DNA from: a virus
DNA length: 43,309 nucleotides
IMG/VR virus record: IMGVR_UViG_3300045988_023625
Span: 1 to 43,309 of that record
Reading direction: 5' to 3' (one strand)
Positions within the stretch are counted from its first letter, which is position 1, and every line of letters starts with the position of its first letter. The translations under genes and the position numbers were made by a program. Below are positions 32,809 through 41,893 of this stretch, piece by piece. The notes under the pieces are model-generated. The model made no database searches and was not told where the DNA came from. It saw only the letters and a list, made by a program, of their open reading frames with translations.

Positions 32809-33002
32809 GTATCCTCCTTGTCCGGCTTTAACAGCTCGTCCACCGTGCAACCGTACAGCGCTGCGATTTCCGGCAATCTGCTTGCCCTCGGGGCCTGCTG
32901 ACCAGTCTCCCAGTAATACACGGCCACGTCGGAGATTTTCAGCGCGTCCGCTACCTGCTGGACGCTGAATCCAGCTTTATGACGCGCGCTTCGAAAACTC
33001 AT
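32805..33002 (-). CDS. Cro-like XRE HTH regulator (first gene of the early operon)
   Basis: 65 aa: RSARHKAGFSVQQVADALKISDVAVYYWETGQQAP. It is divergent from the CI-like gene. Confidence 0.8.
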   Translation of the reverse strand: MSFRSARHKAGFSVQQVADALKISDVAVYYWETGQQAPRASRLPEIAALYGCTVDELLKPDKEDT

Positions 33003-33222
33003 CTTTTCACCTCCAAATACTAAGTTTTGCTTGACAACTTAGCGAACCGTGATATTATAAGAAGTGCCAACAAACTAATAATTTCGACAGTCCGCTAAGT
33101 ATCAAGGGGGCTTGCTCTTTTATTGCCCTTTCTGCAACTAAGTATATACTCAGTTAGCGCGAATGTCAATAGGAAGTTAGCGAAAACTAAGTTTTATTTT
33201 ATACAAAATCGGAGCTACAGTT
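33003..33222. promoter_or_regulatory. Genetic switch region: divergent promoters and repeated operator half-sites
   Basis: Plus-strand promoter: TTGACA (33031-33036), 16-nt spacer, TATTAT (33053-33058). The hexamer ACTTAG/AGTTAG or its complement CTAAGT occurs seven times: 33020, 33037, 33095, 33138, 33152, 33175, 33187. Confidence 0.6.
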
Positions 33223-33603
33223 ATGTCTAAATCGCCTATTGTCGCCAGAATTAACGCATTATTGTCTCTTAAAGGCATTTCTAAAAAGCAATTTTTTAAA
33301 GATTGCAAAATTTCTTCATCTGCATTTTCGCAATGGAATACAGGGAAAATCGAAGTGCCTCGAGGGAAAAACATTGAACGAATAGCAAATTATCTTGGAG
33401 TTTCGGTAGAATATCTTTTATATGAGGATATGCAAGAATTTCAGGCAAAAAAAGAGCGCCCCACCGATGGTGAAGCGCTCATTTCTGAATTGCCCGAAGA
33501 TATTCAAAAGCTTATTCGGATTTGCGAATCAAATCCTGACCTTGCTGCTGCTCTACTATCTGTTGCGCAGCAGATCGAAAAAGGTCAAGTTGCTGGGGAG
33601 TAA
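33223..33603 (+). CDS. CI-like XRE-family repressor
   Basis: 126 aa: ARINALLSLKGISKKQFFKDCKISSSAFSQWNTGK...IANYLGVSVEYLL. It has the divergent arrangement with the cro-like gene. Confidence 0.8.
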   Translation: MSKSPIVARINALLSLKGISKKQFFKDCKISSSAFSQWNTGKIEVPRGKNIERIANYLGVSVEYLLYEDMQEFQAKKERPTDGEALISELPEDIQKLIRICESNPDLAAALLSVAQQIEKGQVAGE

Positions 33604-33718
33604 ATCTCGAAATTGTAATAATCAATTCCTCTACCGTCGTCATCCTCTCTGCCCTCCGTTCGCTCTCATATAATAAAACAAGTGTTCTATCGCGGATTAG
33701 TATAGCACTAATTTTTAA

Positions 33719-33747
33719 TTGATTCAATATAATTTAAAATATAAAAT
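33719..33747 (+). promoter_or_regulatory. Candidate promoter of the 336-aa orphan gene
   Basis: TTGATT (33719-33724), 17-nt spacer, TAAAAT (33742-33747). RBS AGGTGA lies before the ATG at 33762. Confidence 0.45.
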
Positions 33748-33761
33748 TAGGTGAATTTGAT

Positions 33762-34772
33762 ATGCCAATTACCGTATATTTTGAGCACGGCCGCGTTGCG
33801 GAGTTGTTTCCAGAACCAAATCAATCGTATTATGACGTGCGCGATAAGATCAACGCGGCGACTGATATAGTGTCTGATGGAATAAAATACGATTTGACCG
33901 ATAAGCAATCGATTTATTCTATCGCCATTCCTGACTATACAAAAGTACGCAATGTACCCCCTTCAAAAGAATTAGGCCCAACAGGGTATCTTGAATATGT
34001 GTTGAGAATGCACGCTGGTTTTCTGTGGAATGCCGGAGATTACCAGCTATCAATGGCATGCCTTGAAAAATCTTGCCAGTTGATGACATATTCCACTCTC
34101 GGGTGGGAGAGAAAAGACTTTTATAGGGTCGTCAACTATTACATTGAGTTAGGGCGATTCAAAAAAGCAAAAGAGTGGAAAGACTGGATAGATAACCACA
34201 CGGAATCTCCGGAAGACTATGCAAAAGACGCATTTGCAAGAACGCTTGAATCGTGTAAAAGACTTAAAACTGATTTAGTAGAGGTTGGCGATTCAAACGC
34301 GTGCTGTGAAATTTGCGCGAAGTACCGGAGACGAATATATAGCTTATCTGGGAAAAGTTGGAAGTTCCCAAAGTTTCCAGATGATTTCCATTTTCAATGT
34401 GCTCTTGGGATATTTGCCTATATTGATGGTGTTTCCGAGCCGTCTTTCAAATGCATTAGTCCATCTCTGTATAGCAAACGACCATTTCGCGATGATCGAA
34501 CAGAAGAAGAAAAGGAAAATTATAGACTTTGGTTAGAACGTGTTGAAAAGTCTTATAATCCGATCAATGAGCCGAATCTAAATCATATTATTTATTATTG
34601 GTTCAAGCCTAAATTCCCCGACGACTTCCCAAAATCTCTTTCTGGCTTTTCTCGCATGCGAAACGGTAACACAGCAAATTATCAAAAGCTGGCACAGAAG
34701 ATTGAGGATGCGGGGTATACCATACCTAAATCATTAAATGAGGTCGCAGAATGGGAAGAGCGGGAGAATTGA
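33762..34772 (+). CDS. Orphan 336-aa protein in the lysogeny module (function unknown)
   Basis: Clearly more AT-rich than the rest of the genome by eye. Cys cluster NACCEICAKYRRR...FHFQC. The motif PKFPDDF occurs twice. I recognise no family. Confidence 0.75.
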   Translation: MPITVYFEHGRVAELFPEPNQSYYDVRDKINAATDIVSDGIKYDLTDKQSIYSIAIPDYTKVRNVPPSKELGPTGYLEYVLRMHAGFLWNAGDYQLSMACLEKSCQLMTYSTLGWERKDFYRVVNYYIELGRFKKAKEWKDWIDNHTESPEDYAKDAFARTLESCKRLKTDLVEVGDSNACCEICAKYRRRIYSLSGKSWKFPKFPDDFHFQCALGIFAYIDGVSEPSFKCISPSLYSKRPFRDDRTEEEKENYRLWLERVEKSYNPINEPNLNHIIYYWFKPKFPDDFPKSLSGFSRMRNGNTANYQKLAQKIEDAGYTIPKSLNEVAEWEEREN

Positions 34773-34800
34773 AAAGTTGCAAGGCGGTATAGCTTAGATT

Positions 34801-34840
34801 GGCCCCGCCGCCCTCTGCAACAAACGGCGGGGCCTTTTTG
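34801..34840 (+). terminator. Strong intrinsic terminator, followed by a second weaker hairpin at 34845-34866
   Basis: GGCCCCGCCG (34801-34810) pairs with CGGCGGGGCC (34825-34834), followed by TTTTTG. Next, CAGCGG pairs with CCGCTG, followed by cttgtttt. Confidence 0.8.
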
Positions 34841-35003
34841 CAGCCAGCGGGAAGCGGTCGCCGCTGCTTGTTTTGACCATACTCTGCTTTACCTTGGTAA
34901 TTCAACACCGAAACATTGCAATAAGACAGCGCTCGACGCAATTCGACAAACCATTATCTTGCGACTTCGCAACGCAAAAATCGGAGAAATTAAGGTGGCA
35001 TAA

Positions 35004-35418: not shown

Positions 35419-36543
35419 ATGGCGAATTGCATCAAATGCAAAGCAGCGTTGCCGGATGGCGCGCTGTTTTGTCCTATGTGCGGCAAAAAGCAGGTCGCCG
35501 AAAAGCGCAAGGCGCTCAAGCGCGCCAACGGAACCGGCACGGTATATAAGCTCTCAGGCCGCCGTGCGCGCCCGTGGGTCGCCGCGAAGAACAGGGTGGT
35601 TATTGGATACTACGAGCGCAAAACGGACGCGCTGGACGCGCTGGAACGGCTGAACGGAAAACCCCTGACGGAGCGATACAACATGACCTTTGCTGAAGTG
35701 TTTGAGGCGTGGAAAGCCGAGCATTACAAAGAAATCGGAAAGCAAAGCATTCGGTCATACGACGCTGCATTTAAGGTGTTCGCGTCTCTACATGATAAAA
35801 AGTTTCGGGATCTGCGAACGGCAGATTTTCAGGCGGTGCTCGCCCCACACATGGGGAAAAGCCGATCGACCGTGAGCAAGCACAAAAATCTGATCACGCA
35901 AATGTCGGAATGGGCAATGCGGGAAGAGATCTGCACGACCAATTTTGCGCAGTTCATAAAAGTCCCGGAAGCCATGAAAAAAGAAAAGAATATCTTCACC
36001 GAGGAAGATATCCAGAAACTCGAAAAGGACGGCAGCGACGCGGCGAAGATCGTTCTGATGCTGCTTTCAACCGGTATGCGCATCGGTGAGCTATTTTCTC
36101 TTCCGGTCGCAGATTATCACGGGGCTTATGTGGTAGGCGGAGAAAAGACAGATGCAGGCCGCAACCGTATTATCCCCATCCGTCCGGAAGGGCGGCAATA
36201 TTTTGAGTATTTCGTCGCGCGTGCAACAGGCGAGTTGCTGATCTCCGGGTACAGCGGGCAGAAAGTCGTTGAGAATTTCCGCAAGCGCGATTTTTACCCG
36301 CTACTCGACCGGCTCGGCATATCCAAAAAGACGCCGCACGCCACGCGCCACACTTACGCATCCCGCGCCGTCAAAGAGGGTCTCGCCCCAGAGATGCTGC
36401 AAAAAATCCTCGGTCATGCCGATTATTCCACCACAGCAAACGTCTATACCCATATCGACCCCGAAACGCTTGTATCCGCTGTTACTAACTCGTTACTAAC
36501 AATCCCAAAAAAGAGCAAAAAGAAAGAGCCCCGAAACCATTGA
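35419..36543 (+). CDS. int: Tyrosine integrase with an N-terminal zinc ribbon
   Basis: 374 aa. Contains CIKCKAALPDGALFCPMCGKK. Catalytic-region motifs are HATRHTYASRAV and LGHADYSTTANVYTHI. Confidence 0.9.
   Translation: MANCIKCKAALPDGALFCPMCGKKQVAEKRKALKRANGTGTVYKLSGRRARPWVAAKNRVVIGYYERKTDALDALERLNGKPLTERYNMTFAEVFEAWKAEHYKEIGKQSIRSYDAAFKVFASLHDKKFRDLRTADFQAVLAPHMGKSRSTVSKHKNLITQMSEWAMREEICTTNFAQFIKVPEAMKKEKNIFTEEDIQKLEKDGSDAAKIVLMLLSTGMRIGELFSLPVADYHGAYVVGGEKTDAGRNRIIPIRPEGRQYFEYFVARATGELLISGYSGQKVVENFRKRDFYPLLDRLGISKKTPHATRHTYASRAVKEGLAPEMLQKILGHADYSTTANVYTHIDPETLVSAVTNSLLTIPKKSKKKEPRNH
36481..36500 (+). repeat. Two copies of the 9-mer GTTACTAAC (candidate integrase arm-type sites, P arm)
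   Basis: 36481-36489 and 36492-36500, inside the 3' end of int. Confidence 0.5.
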
Positions 36544-36560: not shown

Positions 36561-36605
36561 GGAGCTGGTGGTGTGACTCGAACACATGACCTGCTGATTA
36601 CGAAT
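36560..36605 (-). other. attP core: 46-nt copy of the 3' part of a tRNA-Thr(CGU), from the anticodon loop to CCA
   Basis: The minus strand reads A-TTCGTAA-TCAGC-AGGTC-ATGTG-TTCGAGT-CACAC-CACCAGC-T-CCA. These segments correspond to anticodon loop (anticodon CGT), anticodon stem 3' strand, variable loop, T arm, acceptor 3' strand, discriminator and CCA. No D arm or 5' acceptor strand lies upstream, so this is not a functional tRNA. Confidence 0.7.
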
Positions 36606-36692
36606 TAAGCGCAAAAGCCGAACGCGCGGCATATTGTAGCAATAGTATGGAATATCACGGCATAATTGCAATATATATGAATTAAATATGCC

Positions 36693-36725
36693 GTCATTCC
36701 GCGTCATTCCGTCGCGGTTACTAAC
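36693..36725 (+). repeat. GTCATTCCG x2 and a third GTTACTAAC (candidate P' arm sites)
   Basis: GTCATTCCG at 36693-36701 and 36703-36711. GTTACTAAC at 36717-36725. An AT-rich tract lies at 36661-36690. Confidence 0.45.
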
Positions 36726-36734
36726 AAATTGCTA

Positions 36735-37055
36735 TCACTTTTCCAGTTTCCGCATGACGCTGTTGTACACGCGCTCATTGACGATCTTGAGGTCGTCCAT
36801 CAGCTCATCAATGATCTCCCACGCCTTGTCCGGCGGAACACCTGCCACTGCGCGCAGAAAATCGCTGTCGCCGTATGTTTCGACGCTAACCGGCGCGGGC
36901 GCTGCGGAGTATGCCATTGGCAAAGCCCTCTCTCTGCTGCCGCTTTGCTGGTCACGAATGGCATACAGCACGGCAAGGCGCTCGTAGTTTGTCCAACTCG
37001 ATTCCTCTGTTTCAAGGCGAGCTATCCAGCGCTTGACCTCATTCTCGTCGACCAT
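36735..37055 (-). CDS. Accessory operon gene 8: acidic helical protein, unknown function
   Basis: Start MVDENEVKRW at 37055 after an AGGGGGTG RBS. 106 aa. It is the last gene before attP. Confidence 0.6.
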   Translation of the reverse strand: MVDENEVKRWIARLETEESSWTNYERLAVLYAIRDQQSGSRERALPMAYSAAPAPVSVETYGDSDFLRAVAGVPPDKAWEIIDELMDDLKIVNERVYNSVMRKLEK

Positions 37056-37071
37056 AGGGGATTCACCCCCT

Positions 37072-37479
37072 TTAACCCTCGATCGTGTCCATACAGCGCT
37101 GGATTGCTCTGCGGATGCTGTCATCGTCCGCATCGTCAAGCATCTCCTGCAACTGGCGTTTCATGTTGTCGATGCCGCCGTCACGGGAATAGTGGCCGCG
37201 CACATAATGCGTGCCGCGTCTTGCATTGGACATATCACGGTCATAAGCGCCGCGCATGCCCGACTGCCAGTCTCCGTCGCGGGAATAGCGGCGAGAATAG
37301 TCTTCATCGCGGGAATAGCCGCCGTCTTCCATTATCTCGATCTTATCGATGTTCTTGATGGTGTCCGTCAGTTTGTGCGCGATTTCGAGATCTCCCGCGC
37401 CAAGCTCGCCCTTACGTGCCAGCTCGTCAAGTTCGTCGCACAGCATATTGCGTAAATCATACATTGCTTTCTTGCTCAT
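37072..37479 (-). CDS. Accessory operon gene 7: helical protein with a central Arg/Asp/Tyr/Ser-rich segment
   Basis: Start MSKKAMYDLRN at 37479 (RBS AAAGGAG, 7-nt spacing). 135 aa. The central segment is GGYSRDEDYSRRYSRDGDW...HYVRGHYSRDGG. Confidence 0.6.
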   Translation of the reverse strand: MSKKAMYDLRNMLCDELDELARKGELGAGDLEIAHKLTDTIKNIDKIEIMEDGGYSRDEDYSRRYSRDGDWQSGMRGAYDRDMSNARRGTHYVRGHYSRDGGIDNMKRQLQEMLDDADDDSIRRAIQRCMDTIEG

Positions 37480-37492
37480 GTCCATTCTCCTT

Positions 37493-37915
37493 TCACGCGA
37501 TTCTCTCAACCGTCAGATTCGAGTTAGCGAAGTTGACGGCCTGAGCGCTGGTGTTTTCCATTGCGACCGTCAGGCAGCAACCTTTCGGAACGCAGACCTG
37601 TGCGGAAACATAAATGTTAAAGTAGTTTCCTACCGCCGCGGGCGTGACGGTCGCCGTTGCGCTGGTCAACGGCTCTCCGTTAATGGCAAGCGCCGCCGTG
37701 ATTGCCTCGACCGTTCCTCCGGTGGGAATAGCGATGTTGCCGCCATAGGAGACCCTAAACAAGGCGCGATTTTGATTGGTGATGCCGCGAAGCGTGACAA
37801 CGCCTGCGCCCTGACGATGCACGATACAGGGCTTGCTATTGACCGCCGTTTCAGTCAGGGGAACGTTCTGGCCAGCAGCAACGGTCTGAATTGCCGCAGA
37901 AGTAAATTCTGCCAT
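37493..37915 (-). CDS. Accessory operon gene 6: BclA C-terminal-domain-like (C1q/TNF-like jelly roll) protein with no collagen stalk
   Basis: Start MAEFTSAAIQ at 37915. 140 aa. The pattern AAIQTVAAGQNVPL ... VTLRG ... ALAINGEPLTSA ... NLTVERIA parallels the B. anthracis BclA CTD as I remember it (IQVNGVPVPG ... SIIIEKVA). Confidence 0.6.
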   Translation of the reverse strand: MAEFTSAAIQTVAAGQNVPLTETAVNSKPCIVHRQGAGVVTLRGITNQNRALFRVSYGGNIAIPTGGTVEAITAALAINGEPLTSATATVTPAAVGNYFNIYVSAQVCVPKGCCLTVAMENTSAQAVNFANSNLTVERIA

Positions 37916-37934
37916 TAAAATCATTCCTTTCTCA

Positions 37935-37969
37935 GTTAAAATACAGCGGCGGAGCTATTGCCCCGCCGC
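37935..37969 (-). terminator. Terminator/attenuator-like hairpin between accessory genes 5 and 6
   Basis: Minus-strand RNA is GCGGCGG-(10 nt)-CCGCCGC (37969..37946) followed by UGUAUUUUAA. Confidence 0.45.
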
Positions 37970-38037
37970 GTTGTTGTAGTATCGGCACGGGGCCGACCAT
38001 TTCCCCCACATGGGGAAAAAGCTATGCTATGCAGTTG

Positions 38038-38745
38038 TCAGCAGCCGCAACCGGCAAACTGGTTGCAGCAATAGGGGTTCTGCACCGTGTAGGCCGGAAT
38101 GGGAGAGGGGCGCAGCTGCGAGACCAGATAGCTGTTCTGTGCCGCCTGAGACGCGGCCAGCTTCAAGCCCTGGTTCTCGCTCTGGAGATCCTGCAACTTG
38201 CTCTGCGTCAGGAAGTCGAGGATCGCGCGGCTGTTGCTGTTGGCGTTGTCGATGATGTCGCGCGTCGCGTTCTGCACGGTGTTGCGCGTGTCGCACGCCT
38301 GCGCAGCCATGTCGTAGCGCACTTGCGCGATCGCGGCACGGTTCTCGCAGCAGCAATTCGCGGCCTGCATCTGCATGGCGTTGAGCTGCTGCATCAGCGC
38401 CGCCTGCTGGTTGCTACGGGACAGCTCGGCCTGTGCAAAGCCGTTTGCCATCGCCATATTGGTGCCGTTGGCAAGCTGCGCCTGCTGGTAAAACCCGTTG
38501 CAAAGGCCGTCGTTTACACTGTCGATCTTGCGCTCGACATTGGCAAAATCAGAGGTCAGCACATAGCCGTCGACCACGCCGCCGGAATTGCCAGCGTTAT
38601 TGCCCCAGCCGTTGCGGCCCCAGCCGAAGAGGAAAAGAACGATAATCCAGATCCAGTTTTCGCCCCACATGCCCATACCTCCGCCGTAGTTGTTCGCGGG
38701 CGCGACCGGCATGGTCATCATGGGAGCGCCGTCAGAAAGAGACAT
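38038..38745 (-). CDS. Accessory operon gene 5: Gly/Met-rich N-terminus, TM, coiled coil, Cys clusters
   Basis: 235 aa. TM segment NWIWIIVLFLFGWG. Gln/Asn/Ala-rich helical region with AANCCCENRAAIAQVRYDMAAQACD. The C-terminus ends NPYCCNQFAGCGC. Confidence 0.7.
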   Translation of the reverse strand: MSLSDGAPMMTMPVAPANNYGGGMGMWGENWIWIIVLFLFGWGRNGWGNNAGNSGGVVDGYVLTSDFANVERKIDSVNDGLCNGFYQQAQLANGTNMAMANGFAQAELSRSNQQAALMQQLNAMQMQAANCCCENRAAIAQVRYDMAAQACDTRNTVQNATRDIIDNANSNSRAILDFLTQSKLQDLQSENQGLKLAASQAAQNSYLVSQLRPSPIPAYTVQNPYCCNQFAGCGC

Positions 38746-38795
38746 ATTATCTCTCCTTTCAAAATTTTATTTATCAAATCGTGGCCACGATAAGA

Positions 38796-39014
38796 TCAAT
38801 GAAATAAGGGTCCAAACTGCTTTGCCATAGATTGGAGATGGTTCAACTCTTGTTGGCTCATAGCGCCAGATTGTAGAAGTTTATTGACTTCTTCTTTGGG
38901 GTCCCCCTGAAAGCCACTTTGAAACTGCTGGAATTTTTGCTTGAGCTGCATCAGATCCCACATCGGCCCCGGCATCTGTCCGCCGCCGAGCGCACCGAAA
39001 AAGGGATTATTCAT
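38796..39014 (-). CDS. Accessory operon gene 4: 72-aa Gln/Phe/Gly-rich protein
   Basis: MNNPFFGALGGGQMPGPMWDLMQLKQKFQQFQSGFQGDPKEEV... RBS AAGGAGGAA. Overlaps gene 3 by 8 nt. Confidence 0.6.
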   Translation of the reverse strand: MNNPFFGALGGGQMPGPMWDLMQLKQKFQQFQSGFQGDPKEEVNKLLQSGAMSQQELNHLQSMAKQFGPLFH

Positions 39015-39435
39015 CGTCGTCTTCCTCCTTGCGCTTCTTTTTGCCCTTCAATTCGCCCACAAGCGCCGCCAGCGCGTCAAACTCCTTACGGGTGACAAAT
39101 TCGCCCTTTTCCTGTGGCGCTGTACGGGGAGTTTCTGCGCGTTCTACGAGGTCATAAATCTTGAGCGTCGGCTTGCCGCTTGCGTCGGACTGCTTGAGGT
39201 ATACCGTCGGCGCGCCGGAATCCCACAGCGCCACGGCAGAGTTAGGCGCGATCAGATAGCCCCTTGCCTCCTGCTCGCCATTGACCCACTGCACGCCGCC
39301 CTGCGCGATGGGGTTCTGCTGCACTGGCTGCGACATAGGCTGCTGCATGGGCTGCATCATCTGTTGCTGCCGCATCTGCATGAGGTTGTCCGGAATCGGC
39401 TGCGGATAATAGGGATTGAAATAGGGATATGCCAT
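39007..39435 (-). CDS. Accessory operon gene 3: Gln/Pro/Met-rich N-terminus, globular core, Lys/Glu/Asp tail
   Basis: Start preferred at MAYPYFNPYYPQP (39435; GGAGGA lies 7 nt upstream). The ATG at 39441 is too close to the RBS. Confidence 0.6.
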   Translation of the reverse strand: MAYPYFNPYYPQPIPDNLMQMRQQQMMQPMQQPMSQPVQQNPIAQGGVQWVNGEQEARGYLIAPNSAVALWDSGAPTVYLKQSDASGKPTLKIYDLVERAETPRTAPQEKGEFVTRKEFDALAALVGELKGKKKRKEEDDDE

Positions 39436-39437
39436 GT

Positions 39438-39821
39438 TCATTCCTCCGTTTCTTTGACCCAGTAATAAAGCGGGATTTCGTTCTCGCTGTTCCAACTGTC
39501 ATAGATCACGCCGTCTTGCACGCACACGACATGACCGGAGAGCGCGAGAATATACGTCCCGCGCGGGTGATCATCGGCGAACTTACCGACGGTGTAGCAG
39601 TCGGGGCAGGTATCCGGCATGATGTAGCGACGGTAGCCCAAAGACCGCAGATAAGCGCCCCAACAAGCGTTTGCGTTGGGTAAATCGCCGTCAAGGTAGC
39701 CCTGTATGCAGAGGGACAAATACACCTTTCCCCAGTCCTTCCCCGTCGCCTTGCAGATCGCGCGCACGGTGCAGTCGGACACATTACGCCCAGCGGGATT
39801 TGGGTTAAAGTAGCTATACAT
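39438..39821 (-). CDS. Accessory operon gene 2: putative Cys-His (papain/C39-like) peptidase-fold protein
   Basis: 127 aa. Candidate catalytic Cys in NVSDCTVRAI. Candidate His/Asp in LSGHVVCVQDGVIYDSWN. I recall it as a recurrent phage/plasmid family. The fold assignment is tentative. Confidence 0.45.
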   Translation of the reverse strand: MYSYFNPNPAGRNVSDCTVRAICKATGKDWGKVYLSLCIQGYLDGDLPNANACWGAYLRSLGYRRYIMPDTCPDCYTVGKFADDHPRGTYILALSGHVVCVQDGVIYDSWNSENEIPLYYWVKETEE

Positions 39822-39936
39822 GGAAAAGCTCCGCGAAATAGACGTAAGTGCGCAGCTCGTCAGGGTCGGGAAACAGCGTCAAAATGTCCATTGCCATCTG
39901 CTCGGTAAATCCCAAAGCTAAAAGTCGGTCGTACAT
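39814..39936 (-). CDS. Accessory operon gene 1: 40-aa protein
   Basis: Not in the track. ATG at 39936 after AAGGAGGTGCGGCG. Translation: MYDRLLALGFTEQMAMDILTLFPDPDELRTYVYFAELFHV. Its stop overlaps the next start (ATGTATAG). Confidence 0.5.
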   Translation of the reverse strand: MYDRLLALGFTEQMAMDILTLFPDPDELRTYVYFAELFHV

Positions 39937-39988
39937 CGCCGCACCTCCTTTTGTCGCCTCAATCATACCGTGGATCGCGCTCCGCAAA

Positions 39989-40066
39989 TGGTCATTGTTT
40001 GGTCATTATTTGGTCAAAAAATATTTCAAAAAAGCCCTTGACATACCACGCAATGCGTGGTAATAT
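39989..40066 (+). promoter_or_regulatory. Promoter with a palindromic operator, preceded by three tandem 11-bp repeats
   Basis: TGGTCATTGTT (39989-39999), TGGTCATTATT (40000-40010), TGGTCAAAAAA (40011-40021). TTGACA (40038-40043), 17-nt spacer, TAATAT (40061-40066). The spacer contains the palindrome CCACGCA-A-TGCGTGG (40046-40060). Confidence 0.6.
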
Positions 40067-40110: not shown

Positions 40111-40380
40111 ATGAAGCTTACCGATGGAAAGAGGACCGTGGAGATCAAGATTCAGCGCTGGAACGGTTCCGGTTATGACCCTGATTGGAGCGCCGATTAC
40201 TTCAACGCAGGCTCCCTCCCGTACGACGAAGAGACCGATACATACACAGTCGAGGATGTGGATTACTGCATCGAGACCGCGAACAAAGCAAACGAAGACG
40301 GTGCTTGCGGCAAGTACGACGAAAACGGCGATCTCGTCCGCGACGAAGACATGTTCGTTTTTGTCGAGGAGCTGAATTAA
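40111..40380 (+). CDS. Acidic hypothetical protein
   Basis: 89 aa with RBS AGGAGGA. WNGSGYDPDWSADYF...YTVEDVDYCIE. I recall this family from Firmicutes mobile elements. Confidence 0.65.
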   Translation: MKLTDGKRTVEIKIQRWNGSGYDPDWSADYFNAGSLPYDEETDTYTVEDVDYCIETANKANEDGACGKYDENGDLVRDEDMFVFVEELN

Positions 40381-40394
40381 AGGAGGAGTTTACC

Positions 40395-40742
40395 ATGACC
40401 GACAAGCAGTTTTACAGCATCTTTTCAGACGCGCTCTCGAATGATGGCGCGTCCCGCGAAGCATTTGTCTCCGATTGGGCTCTTAGCTCCATTTGGGACG
40501 ACGATAATCAAGATATTTCGGAGGAGCGTATTGCCGAGATCGGTAATATTTGGAATGTTGCTCACCTGACGATCTGCGATATCCGCCAATATACAGGTCT
40601 GTCGCAGGCTAAATTTGCAGCTCGCTTTTGCATCCCTCGCCGATCTATCGAGGATTGGGAGTCCGGTGCAAGGCACTGCCCCGACTATCTGCGGTTGTTG
40701 CTCGCACAGGCCGTTGGTCTGTACAATAAGCCTGCTGTATGA
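40395..40742 (+). CDS. Protein with a C-terminal XRE-like HTH
   Basis: ATG at 40395 after AGGAGGAG. 115 aa. Contains IRQYTGLSQAKFAARFCIPRRSIEDWESGARHCPDYLRLLL. The longer track ORF starting at 40185 is rejected. Confidence 0.7.
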   Translation: MTDKQFYSIFSDALSNDGASREAFVSDWALSSIWDDDNQDISEERIAEIGNIWNVAHLTICDIRQYTGLSQAKFAARFCIPRRSIEDWESGARHCPDYLRLLLAQAVGLYNKPAV

Positions 40743-40764: not shown

Positions 40765-40798
40765 AAAGAGAGCACCGATTAACCTCGGTGCTCTCTTT
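40765..40798. terminator. 14-bp bidirectional terminator between convergent units
   Basis: AAAGAGAGCACCGA (40765-40778) pairs with TCGGTGCTCTCTTT (40785-40798). The minus-strand RNA is followed by UGUUCUUUAUU. Confidence 0.7.
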
Positions 40799-41054
40799 GT
40801 CCGTCTGCTATTTTTTGATATGCCCGCCTGCGGCAGCGGTTGACGGCCTCCGGCGACAGGTGCAGCGCTGCACACACTTGCGCGTAGCTCTTGCGCCGCA
40901 CGTCGCATTCAATAAGGCAGTACGCCTCATCGGGCGGCAGCTCAAACGATAAGATATACGCCACGGCTCGCTTGGGGGCCATAGAGGATAATTGCGCGCG
41001 GATCGCTCGGTGCTGCTTGTCCATGCTGTGCACCGGGGCTTGCAGAGCGCTCAC
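40779..41054 (-). CDS. Sigma-70 region-4-like / RinA-ArpU-like small transcription regulator
   Basis: 91 aa: ELPPDEAYCLIECDVRRKSYAQVCAALHLSPEAVNRCRRRAYQKI. The GTG start is coupled (GTGA) to a 5-codon leader ORF at 41051-41068 that has a GGGAGG RBS. Confidence 0.5.
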   Translation of the reverse strand: MSALQAPVHSMDKQHRAIRAQLSSMAPKRAVAYILSFELPPDEAYCLIECDVRRKSYAQVCAALHLSPEAVNRCRRRAYQKIADGQREHRG

Positions 41055-41115: not shown

Positions 41116-41691
41116 TTATTTCATTGTCGCGAGCTTGCGAATCAGGTCATTGCCGTACTTATACGCCGCGAGGTAGTCGAGCGTCGGATCAAGCAGCCCC
41201 GCGCGCTTTTTGAGCACTTCGCGATAGCTCGCCTCATACTTCGGGCGATATGCGCCCACCACGAGCGAAAGCTTGCGCTTGCGGCGATATACCCCGTCGC
41301 CGTTGGACTGGCTGCCCGCAGCGCCGCTTGATGTGTTGCCCTCGATGGCCGTCACGTATTGCCCGCTCACGCTCTCGCAGATGCCCGTATGGTCGGTCTT
41401 GACCTTCGTGTTGGGAAAGTCGTAGATCAGCACGTCGCCCGGTTGATAGCCCTTTGTGACCCACTGACCGTGCGCTTTCGCGTAGTTCATCAGCTCGCCG
41501 CAGCTCGCGGTCTTCCCGCCGCCGTAGAAGAGCCGCTTATCCACCTGCTGGAAGCACCACCATACAAATTGCATACACCAGTACACGCCGTCCACGCCGT
41601 AGGCCTTGCCATACTTCTGGCGGTTGCCCGGCTGCTCCACCGTGCCGATCTCCTTGCGTGCGATGGCGAGAATGTCAGTTGCCCGCGCCAT
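41116..41691 (-). CDS. CHAP-domain endolysin
   Basis: Start MARATDIL at 41691 after GGGAGGTGAAGACA. Contains NRQKYGKAYGVDGVYWCMQFVWWCF (Cys), DHTGICESV (His) and TAIEGNTS. Confidence 0.8.
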   Translation of the reverse strand: MARATDILAIARKEIGTVEQPGNRQKYGKAYGVDGVYWCMQFVWWCFQQVDKRLFYGGGKTASCGELMNYAKAHGQWVTKGYQPGDVLIYDFPNTKVKTDHTGICESVSGQYVTAIEGNTSSGAAGSQSNGDGVYRRKRKLSLVVGAYRPKYEASYREVLKKRAGLLDPTLDYLAAYKYGNDLIRKLATMK

Positions 41692-41893
41692 TGTCTTCAC
41701 CTCCCACCGCGTCTTGCACCTTCTGGCTCTGCGTGCCGAAGTAAAACGCGATGATAACCGCATAGATCGTCATAAAGTCCTGCGAGATATTGCCCGTCAC
41801 GGCCATGTAAGCGAAAACGCCCGTCAGCACCAGCGTTACGATGCTCTTGACGCTCATCAGGTTTGCGATACGCTTAAGAATTCTTTCGTTCAT
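41675..41893 (-). CDS. Holin-like two-TM protein (holin 2)
   Basis: 72 aa: KSIVTLVLTGVFAYMAVTG and FMTIYAVIIAFYFG. It lies immediately upstream of, and overlaps, the endolysin gene. Confidence 0.65.
   Translation of the reverse strand: MNERILKRIANLMSVKSIVTLVLTGVFAYMAVTGNISQDFMTIYAVIIAFYFGTQSQKVQDAVGGEDNGAGN

Follow-up and report, generated by a model that had tools for sequence, protein, structure and literature searches.

A conserved syntenic module of gut and rumen phages carries a stalk-less TNF/C1q-fold protein and a Cys-rich coiled-coil protein

The 43,309-nucleotide viral record IMGVR_UViG_3300045988_023625 of IMG/VR, analyzed here over its whole length and called the window, reads as a temperate siphovirus-like genome of ~43 kb with genes mainly on the minus strand. 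Our subject is a block of eight co-directional minus-strand genes, g1 to g8, which runs from 39936 to 36735 between the lysis genes and the integrase. A first-pass annotation of the window had described these genes as a tight operon, and all eight are present in the list of open reading frames (ORFs). The three overlapping junctions that it named were verified: g1 and g2 overlap at ATGTATAG (39814-39821), the g2 stop overlaps the g3 start (39438-39441), and g3 and g4 share 8 nt (39007-39014). The operon is less tight further on, with gaps of 50 nt between g4 and g5 and ~113 nt between g5 and g6.

Iterated hidden Markov models were run over 262 loci, and the 131 with complete flanks were used for counts. 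Among these, g5 is present in all 131, g3 in 125, g4 in 123, g6 in 121, g7 in 119, g2 in 117, g8 in 83 and g1 in 53. The order g(1)-2-3-4-5-6-7-(8) is kept in 108 of the 131, and this conserved order spans clades in which g6 identity is only ~44%. The block thus occurs in many other phages, and because its gene order is conserved as a syntenic module, it is one copy of a conserved phage module, far beyond chance.

The carriers are siphoviruses of gut Oscillospiraceae, together with phages of the rumen that are relatives of Ceridwen, a cultured Butyrivibrio virus. Relatives were found in metagenome-assembled genomes labelled Oscillospiraceae, Clostridium sp. CAG:413 and Lawsonibacter, and all contexts inspected for the g5 and g6 families were phage genomes or prophages. 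With tblastn, g2 to g8 were detected in Dulem virus 33, and g2, g3, g5, g6, g7 and g8 in Ceridwen, where they lie downstream of the lysin and an annotated 66-aa ORF occupies the g4 position. The host of Ceridwen, Butyrivibrio fibrisolvens, is non-sporulating. Ceridwen on B. fibrisolvens DSM 3071 is a cultured phage-host pair with the module, and no other cultured phage with any allele was found among 50,697 records. Ceridwen has no integrase or excisionase and has been observed in lytic growth only (PMC7372960). An unannotated Ceridwen ORF of ~50 aa (L001, 4930-5085) has a pattern similar to g1 and overlaps the start of g2; it lies between g2 and the terminator that follows a gene related to sigma-70 region 4, described below as the sigma4-like gene. 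The genome position of the module varies. It lies between an SPP1-gp7-like minor capsid gene and the scaffold and capsid genes in a Dulem-virus-35-like lineage, and after an integrase in Dulem virus 39. In Dulem virus 33 (L002, 5410-5961), an HNH endonuclease gene on the opposite strand is inserted between g4 and g5.

We also examined the same site in relatives picked by their lysin, a selection that is unbiased toward the module, with counts based on the 44 that have at least 5 kb downstream. A g5-like and g6-like pair is present in 42 of them: 24 carry the window allele (v1), 10 a second allele (v2, as in L186), seven a third (v3, as in L202 and L241) and one a hybrid; two carry none. The site shows allelic diversity, not presence/absence polymorphism. 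The hybrid locus (one among L183-L262) has a v2-type g5 and a v3-type g6; deep alleles therefore recombine inside the module. Both v2 and v3 are without g1, g2 and g8 and retain a g5-like protein (hhalign 93% for v3), a BclA_C-like protein and short ferritin-like helical proteins. The v3 protein at the g3 position was rejected as a g3 homologue (hhalign probability 0.2%). The constant core of the module is g5 and g6. The accessory products are g3 and g7, which have disordered regions, the small helical g4 and g8 and, in this allele, g2. Within v1, the median identity to the window over the 24 relatives is 98% for g1, 96% for g2, 95% for g7 and 93% for g8, compared with 63% for g4 and 70% for g5 (minimum 41%), so that g4 is the most variable gene among close relatives.

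The product of g6 (37493-37915, minus strand; start MAEF at 37915 according to homologues) is a stalk-less TNF/C1q-fold protein of the BclA C-terminal domain/ExsFA type with a conserved GCC motif. The first-pass annotation had recognized this fold, and the AlphaFold2 model, Foldseek and the Pfam matches of relatives all bear it out. Modeled as a monomer only, from an alignment of close and distant relatives, g6 reached a predicted local distance difference test (pLDDT) score of 92.1. In the PDB, Foldseek placed ExsF/ExsFA/BxpB on top (E ~1e-6, query-based TM-score (TMq) ~0.7), followed by the C-terminal domains of F-BclA and BclA and by TNF ligands. The ten-strand jelly roll is shared with 9h3d, 7r1m, 8d02, 9h38 and 1wck at E ~1e-6 to 3e-5 and TMq 0.65-0.74. 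Pfam BclA_C (PF18573) was matched below threshold over the whole profile by 20 of 60 relatives (best E = 4.4e-8) and by the v2 and v3 alleles (v3, 27.2 bits vs a cut-off of 38); the window g6 itself gave no match to this profile at E <= 1. With 140 aa and no GXY repeats, g6 is not a BclA-like exosporium glycoprotein, and NCBIfam, including its exosporium-leader model, returned no g6 match. In BFVD, many stalk-less proteins of this kind (130-145 aa) occur in uncultured phages, and g6 also matches fibritin, tail-fibre and central-spike knobs in BFVD and the PDB (E ~1e-4 to 1e-6). The family is large: clustering at 90% identity gives more than 4,000 clusters, and the profile search gave at least 8,000 matches.

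The second constant protein, g5 (38038-38745, minus strand; phrog_16490), is Cys-rich and coiled-coil, with an N-terminal hydrophobic segment as a possible anchor. Its alignment shows a conserved N-terminal SLADIAAVT-like peptide, a hydrophobic stretch flanked by Gly and Trp, a length-variable Asn/Gln/Ala-rich coiled-coil, a near-invariant CCC, a P.P[VI]PAY.V.NP motif and a CGC tail. The window protein has nine Cys, including the CCC and a CC..C.C tail. The earlier description as a transmembrane plus coiled-coil protein with Cys clusters stands for the coiled-coil and the clusters; a transmembrane helix is plausible yet uncertain, the hydrophobic segment being short, with a best 19-residue Kyte-Doolittle window of 1.23 (family median 1.57). 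The g5 family comprises 1,471 representative clusters at 50% identity, and no g5-g6 fusion of the Rosetta-stone kind was found among 150 g5 representatives. The Cys clusters of g5 and g6 are both retained in 189 of 205 distinct pairs, a variation too small for a test of co-loss.

Upstream of these two, g2 (39438-39821, minus strand; phrog_3754, E = 2.5e-35) encodes a minimal Cys-His-Asp hydrolase-like protein of 127 aa. Across 60 sequences, C16, D107 and W109 do not vary, and H96 is nearly invariant. In the AlphaFold2 model (pLDDT 94.6), the Cys is predicted at the N-terminus of a helix (16-25) and the His and Asp on adjacent strands (96-101 and 104-107), a papain-like arrangement. The claim of a peptidase-like fold therefore holds for the conserved residues and their predicted geometry, but not for the fold: no match to clan CA, NlpC/P60 or transglutaminase was found in Pfam, NCBIfam or PDB sequences, and although the model is confident, Foldseek returned no significant neighbor (best E = 0.35), so a recognizable peptidase or transglutaminase fold was dropped. 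The weak neighbors are deubiquitinases and Tae4 (Josephin-2 TMq 0.45, Tae4 TMq 0.32). Members of the g2 family also occur without the remaining module in Tsamsa-like Bacillus phages, Geobacillus phage GBK2 and Lak megaphages. Both Bacillus phage Tsamsa gp15 (L098) and GBK2 gp35 (L097) lie in early regions, the former three genes upstream of an ocr-like gene and the latter two small ORFs ahead of RecE/RecT.

The remaining products are small and of biased composition, and the composition claims made earlier for g3, g4, g5, g7 and g8 hold on recount. g1 (39814-39936, minus strand) is a 40-aa acidic helical peptide with a good ribosome-binding site (AAAGGAGGTG). g3 (39007-39441, minus strand; phrog_21718, E = 5e-33) has a Gln/Pro/Met-rich N-terminus (residues 1-48: Q 25%, P 19%, M 17%), a beta-rich core with the conserved motif WVQGE.GAK.Y.VAPN...L.DSE...Y.K..D.SG.P, a C-terminal helix and a charged tail. 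g4 (38796-39014, minus strand; phrog_22984) is a 72-aa Gln/Phe-rich helical protein (Q 17%, F 10%) with weak SHOCT/TMP_2-like matches only. g7 (37072-37485, minus strand; phrog_28802; start at 37479 or 37485) aligns as helical ends around a low-complexity core of variable length (R 20%, G 16%, D 16%, Y 12%, S 12%) with the family motif RDSMGRYSR; its short v2 and v3 counterparts weakly resemble Rubrerythrin/ferritin-like bundles (E = 0.004-0.007). g8 (36735-37055, minus strand), also acidic and helical in its alignment, most likely starts at the ATG at 37055 after an AGGAGG site, giving 106 and not 134 aa; the alternative TTG start at 37139 would overlap g7. Both g7 and g8 have an isoelectric point of ~5.

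All eight proteins have PHROG matches, each annotated as of "unknown function": strong for g2 to g6, moderate for g7 (E = 2.6e-9) and weak for g1 (E = 0.005) and g8 (E = 0.0014). Pfam, NCBIfam and PADLOC searches with the eight proteins returned nothing meaningful, Pfam searches with the family alignments of g3, g4, g5, g7 and g8 gave coiled-coil or helical noise only, and PDB sequence and profile searches with all families gave nothing significant. Profile, PHROG and PDB searches thus agree with the earlier statement that no product looks like a structural, replication or lysis protein, and no product matches a known defence family either. The sole PADLOC match, g7 to Csm2 (E = 0.011), covers a helical stretch and is at chance level. 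An embedded small virus was rejected, with no replication or packaging genes in the block. No published description of the module was found in the literature. The first-pass annotation had called the system undescribed; this stands for the ensemble and less so for its parts, whose families are already catalogued in PHROGs. The fold of g6 is known, and the ensemble matches no described system.

The unit extends past the coordinates given for it, since the sigma4-like gene (40779-41024, minus strand) belongs with the module. Read along the minus strand with falling coordinates, the lysis region encodes a CBM_5_12 protein, a weakly XhlA-like protein, a DUF4406 protein, a holin-like ORF and a CHAP lysin (41116-41763), after which the sigma4-like gene follows. 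Its ORF is listed as 40779-41054; homologues begin with MDKQH, which corresponds to the ATG at 41024. The helix-turn-helix (HTH) product scores 30.5 bits with Pfam Sigma70_r4_2 (cut-off 25.7; E = 2.9e-7). In this protein of ~81-91 aa only region 4 matches, with no match to region 2, so it falls short of a complete sigma factor. A homologue precedes the module, in the same orientation, in 102 of 115 loci of the window clade, 54 of 69 of the Ceridwen clade and nine of 10 others (~85%), and in the Dulem-virus-35-like lineage (L263-L266) the gene lies inside the module, between g2 and g3. From this sequence evidence, we propose that the sigma4-like gene is the regulator of the module.

The window and Ceridwen share a common layout of lysin, sigma4-like gene, terminator and module. 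In the window, a terminator-like hairpin with a T-run (40765-40798, minus strand; consensus scan, 14 pairs) closes the lysis/sigma4-like unit, and the Ceridwen record annotates a predicted terminator at the equivalent place. Between the lysin and the sigma4-like gene there is no convincing terminator, as the hairpin there has no T-run. Ahead of g1, our promoter scans, which report consensus matches only, point to a candidate activator-dependent module promoter (39962-40016, minus strand). It consists of a TATGAT -10-like hexamer (39967-39962) without a usable -35, preceded by three TGACCA repeats in 11-bp phasing (40016-40011, 40005-40000 and 39994-39989) that do not recur in the rest of the window. 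Rfam gave no match on the window or on L183, and therefore no known riboswitch or leader ahead of g1. Relatives have other repeat types, RCACTTT and CGGGCA. ATGACCA repeats are confined to loci whose sigma4 allele shares at least 88% identity with that of the window (12/12 vs 0/52). This co-variation of repeat type with the sigma4-like allele is suggestive but confounded by linkage.

In the window, a rare plus-strand insertion (40111-40742) separates the sigma4-like gene from g1. It encodes an acidic 89-aa protein followed by an XRE-type HTH protein, a pair that is present in one of 80 lysin-selected relatives and looks like an anti-defence (Acr-like) gene with an Aca-type regulator. The insertion has its own near-consensus promoter (40038-40066, TTGACA-17-TAATAT with TG), and a perfect 9+9 palindrome (40044-40062) lies in that promoter region. 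In L267-L269 (6228-6610), a 66-aa Pfam AcrIC5 match and a 60-aa ribbon-helix-helix protein occupy the same slot, there between the sigma4-like gene and g2, and an Acb2/Tad1-hairpin-like gene lies nearby in L269 (4718-4918). This slot is a hot spot where anti-defence cargo gathers. Within the module, the g5-g6 gap contains a G+C-rich hairpin (37946-37969, minus strand; hairpin scan), a possible attenuator or remnant, and in 45 clade-A relatives this gap has an extra ORF of 71-75 aa.

At the other end, the attP-side region (36566-36711) lies between the g8 stop and the stop of the plus-strand integrase (35419-36543; stop at 36543), which is preceded by an HTH repressor-like gene. A candidate attP arm site had been placed 10 nt from the last stop; the direct repeat CGTCATTCCG, present twice at 36692-36711 and nearer g8, is actually 24 nt from the g8 stop. 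A stretch like a tRNA 3' half (...GGTCATGTGTTCGAGTCACACCACCAGCTCCA; ~36566-36612, minus strand), read by eye, adjoins the integrase stop and is likely the attP core; ARAGORN called no tRNA there, and comparison with the tRNA-Ser of the integrated relative L008 gave no match. In L008, tRNA-Ser genes directly follow the module, which confirms the position at the prophage end beside the integrase and attP. Further into the lysogeny region, the G+C content falls to 0.38-0.43 at 33001-35000, against ~0.55 in the remaining window, and a 336-aa plus-strand ORF (33762-34772) with only a weak TPR match adjoins the repressor and integrase genes. This stretch is probably foreign cargo within the lysogeny module.

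Overall, the module resembles a fast-diversifying function of the lytic cycle, mobile and self-regulated, rather than optional cargo for lysogenic conversion. On the basis of the synteny, the g6 fold, the conserved residues, the linkage to the regulator and the allelic pattern, we favor, with a probability of roughly 35%, a late-expressed, self-regulated stalk-and-knob assembly of g5 and g6 that diversifies rapidly among relatives. The sigma4-like protein would be made by read-through from the lysis genes and would activate the promoter ahead of g1, making the module a very late class of the lytic cycle. g5 would trimerize into a stalk whose C-terminus, rich in Pro and Cys, would be capped by trimers of g6, much as ExsF holds the Pro-rich leaders of BclA and F-Anchor clamped in its inter-subunit clefts (PMC12357932). 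The Cys clusters (CCC and CGC in g5, GCC in g6) would lock the assembly, and g2 may process or cross-link Gln- and Lys-rich partners. The N-terminus of g5 would tether the structure, most likely at the cytoplasmic face of the infected-cell membrane, given that signal peptides are absent from all products and that the single basic residue close to the hydrophobic segment comes after it. The structure might then act at a rapidly diversifying phage-host or phage-phage interface.

Several observations weigh against this stalk-and-knob assembly. As a transmembrane helix, the hydrophobic segment of g5 is borderline, the positive-inside argument for its topology is weak, and the Pro-rich motif to which g6 would bind is absent from the v2 and v3 alleles. 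g2 may not act on module proteins at all, since it is missing from v2 and v3 and stands alone elsewhere. Linkage alone could explain the co-variation of sigma4-like allele and repeat type, and the divergent promoter with its palindromic operator beside g1 could uncouple expression from the late operon. The regulator of its own and the varied genome positions also fit a mobile accessory or defence cassette.

A rather unlikely alternative is that g5 and g6 form an accessory fibre of the virion, a trimeric coiled-coil with a TNF-like knob on the capsid, neck or tail, with the other products as assembly helpers. The late or head-gene context of the module would suit such a role, as would its near-universal presence combined with allelic diversity, a pattern seen in structural genes that interact with the host. 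The g6 matches to tail-fibre, fibritin and central-spike knobs also fit, as does a hydrophobic segment of g5 that is too short for a certain transmembrane helix. Against this, the lysis cassette stands between the block and the tail genes, the block has its own terminator, promoter and sigma4-like gene, and no product carries a structural PHROG annotation. The knob protein g6 is less variable than the g5 stalk and g4, the opposite of what is found for receptor-binding proteins, and disordered Gln-rich and Arg/Gly/Tyr/Ser-rich partners together with a Cys hydrolase are atypical of fibre operons.

We consider it unlikely that the module is a mobile conflict system for superinfection exclusion, defence or counter-defence, in which incoming phages would be blocked or sensed by a complex tethered to the membrane, with g2 as a protease or deconjugating effector. 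Self-regulation, varied genome positions and deep allelic diversity with a recombinant hybrid are consistent with such a system. So is the neighborhood: the adjoining slot gathers anti-defence-like cargo (AcrIC5-like with ribbon-helix-helix, Acb2/Tad1-like, and the acidic protein with its HTH partner), relatives of g2 lie near an ocr-like gene in Tsamsa-like phages, and the weak, non-significant fold neighbors of g2 are deubiquitinases. However, no product has a meaningful PADLOC match, the module encodes no nuclease, NTPase or other usual effector, and known exclusion genes do not resemble a set of seven to nine genes whose products are of low complexity and look structural. The presence of the module in a lytic phage also argues against a defence expressed from a prophage.

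The first-pass annotation had itself favored lysogenic-conversion cargo with a role at the spore surface or in an appendage, and in its specific form this would be an exosporium- or coat-like layer of proteins that are produced in the mother cell and assemble on the outer membrane of the forespore. We regard this as quite improbable. The position at the prophage end, beside attP and tRNA, is indeed that of lysogenic-conversion morons, and the nearest structural matches of g6 are ExsFA/BxpB and BclA. Signal peptides are lacking in all products, as read from the sequences and as expected of mother-cell coat proteins, and the Cys-rich, Gln-rich and Tyr/Arg/Ser-rich composition recalls coat proteins. 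The small HTH protein of the module is of the same broad kind as GerE, and sporulation genes are carried by gut phages (bioRxiv 10.1101/2023.01.19.524802). Nevertheless, the module is neither variably present among close relatives (the pair is present in 42 of 44) nor missing from virulent phages, as the integrase-less Ceridwen carries it and is lytic on a non-sporulating host. One lineage has it in a head-morphogenesis operon, and the sigma4-like gene, which follows the lysin with no convincing terminator between them, appears to be co-transcribed with it. No match to GerQ, CotY/ExsY or exosporium-leader models was found, and membership among endospore appendages was rejected, with no Ena (DUF3992) or F-ENA (DUF4183) match among the eight proteins or the scanned family members. 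Finally, a chance run of unrelated small morons without a functional unit, to which the lack of g1, g2 and g8 in v2 and v3 and the solitary occurrence of g2 elsewhere might point, is very improbable and was rejected on the conserved synteny (108 of 131 loci across distant clades) and the overlapping start and stop codons.

If the stalk-and-knob assembly of g5 and g6 is correct, the docking principle of ExsF and BclA is not limited to spores, and siphoviruses have a new late gene class with its own regulator. Extending it, we tentatively raise the rather doubtful possibility of an undescribed cellular structure built by the phage, with a membrane-anchored, Cys-locked coiled-coil stalk, an ExsF/BclA-like TNF-fold trimer as its cap and an embedding of disordered Gln-rich and Arg/Gly/Tyr/Ser-rich proteins. 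It would be produced as infection ends, under the control of the sigma4-like activator, by a module that moves between phage lineages. Tailed Clostridia phages would then have reinvented the chemistry of the exosporium nap, perhaps as a coat or tether for progeny, a mark on lysing cells or a means of excluding competitors. Independently of its role, the three deep alleles at one locus offer a way to trace how gut Oscillospiraceae phages recombine and compete. The module is directly testable, because the cultured pair of Ceridwen and B. fibrisolvens DSM 3071 carries it.

With respect to known systems, the module shares features with several and coincides with none. RinA, ArpU and LtrC are small sigma-like late activators of Gram-positive phages. 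The sigma4-like protein is likewise a small HTH protein related to sigma-70 region 4, and its gene lies beside late genes, ahead of a promoter without a -35. In contrast to theirs, it is located after the lysin and not before the small terminase gene and travels with the module and not with packaging genes; the protein is a predicted DNA binder. In position, the module resembles the moron cassettes between the lysis genes and attP of temperate Firmicutes phages, and like these it has its own promoter-like site and a flanking terminator; unlike them, it is not presence-polymorphic (42/44) and also occurs in a lytic phage and in a head operon. The layout of a coiled-coil stalk with a small jelly-roll trimer is that of the Sf6 tail-needle knob, T4-type fibritin whiskers and PRD1 P5. 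Here, however, stalk and knob are encoded by separate genes, the g5 stalk has a hydrophobic N-terminus and Cys clusters, and the module lies outside the tail genes with a regulator and disordered partners.

The closest comparison is with ExsFA/BxpB and the C-terminal domain of BclA from the exosporium of the Bacillus cereus group (9h3d, 7r1m, 8d02, 1wck), which share the TNF/C1q jelly-roll fold with g6 at an identity of only 10-14%. Like ExsFA, g6 is a stand-alone domain of ~140 aa with no collagen stalk, and, as in ExsFA and BclA proteins, it has no signal peptide. Unlike these, g6 is encoded by phages, including a phage of a non-sporulating host, and its module is without an ExsY/CotY-type basal-layer protein. 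The partner of g6 would be a coiled-coil protein in place of a collagen-like glycoprotein with an exosporium leader.

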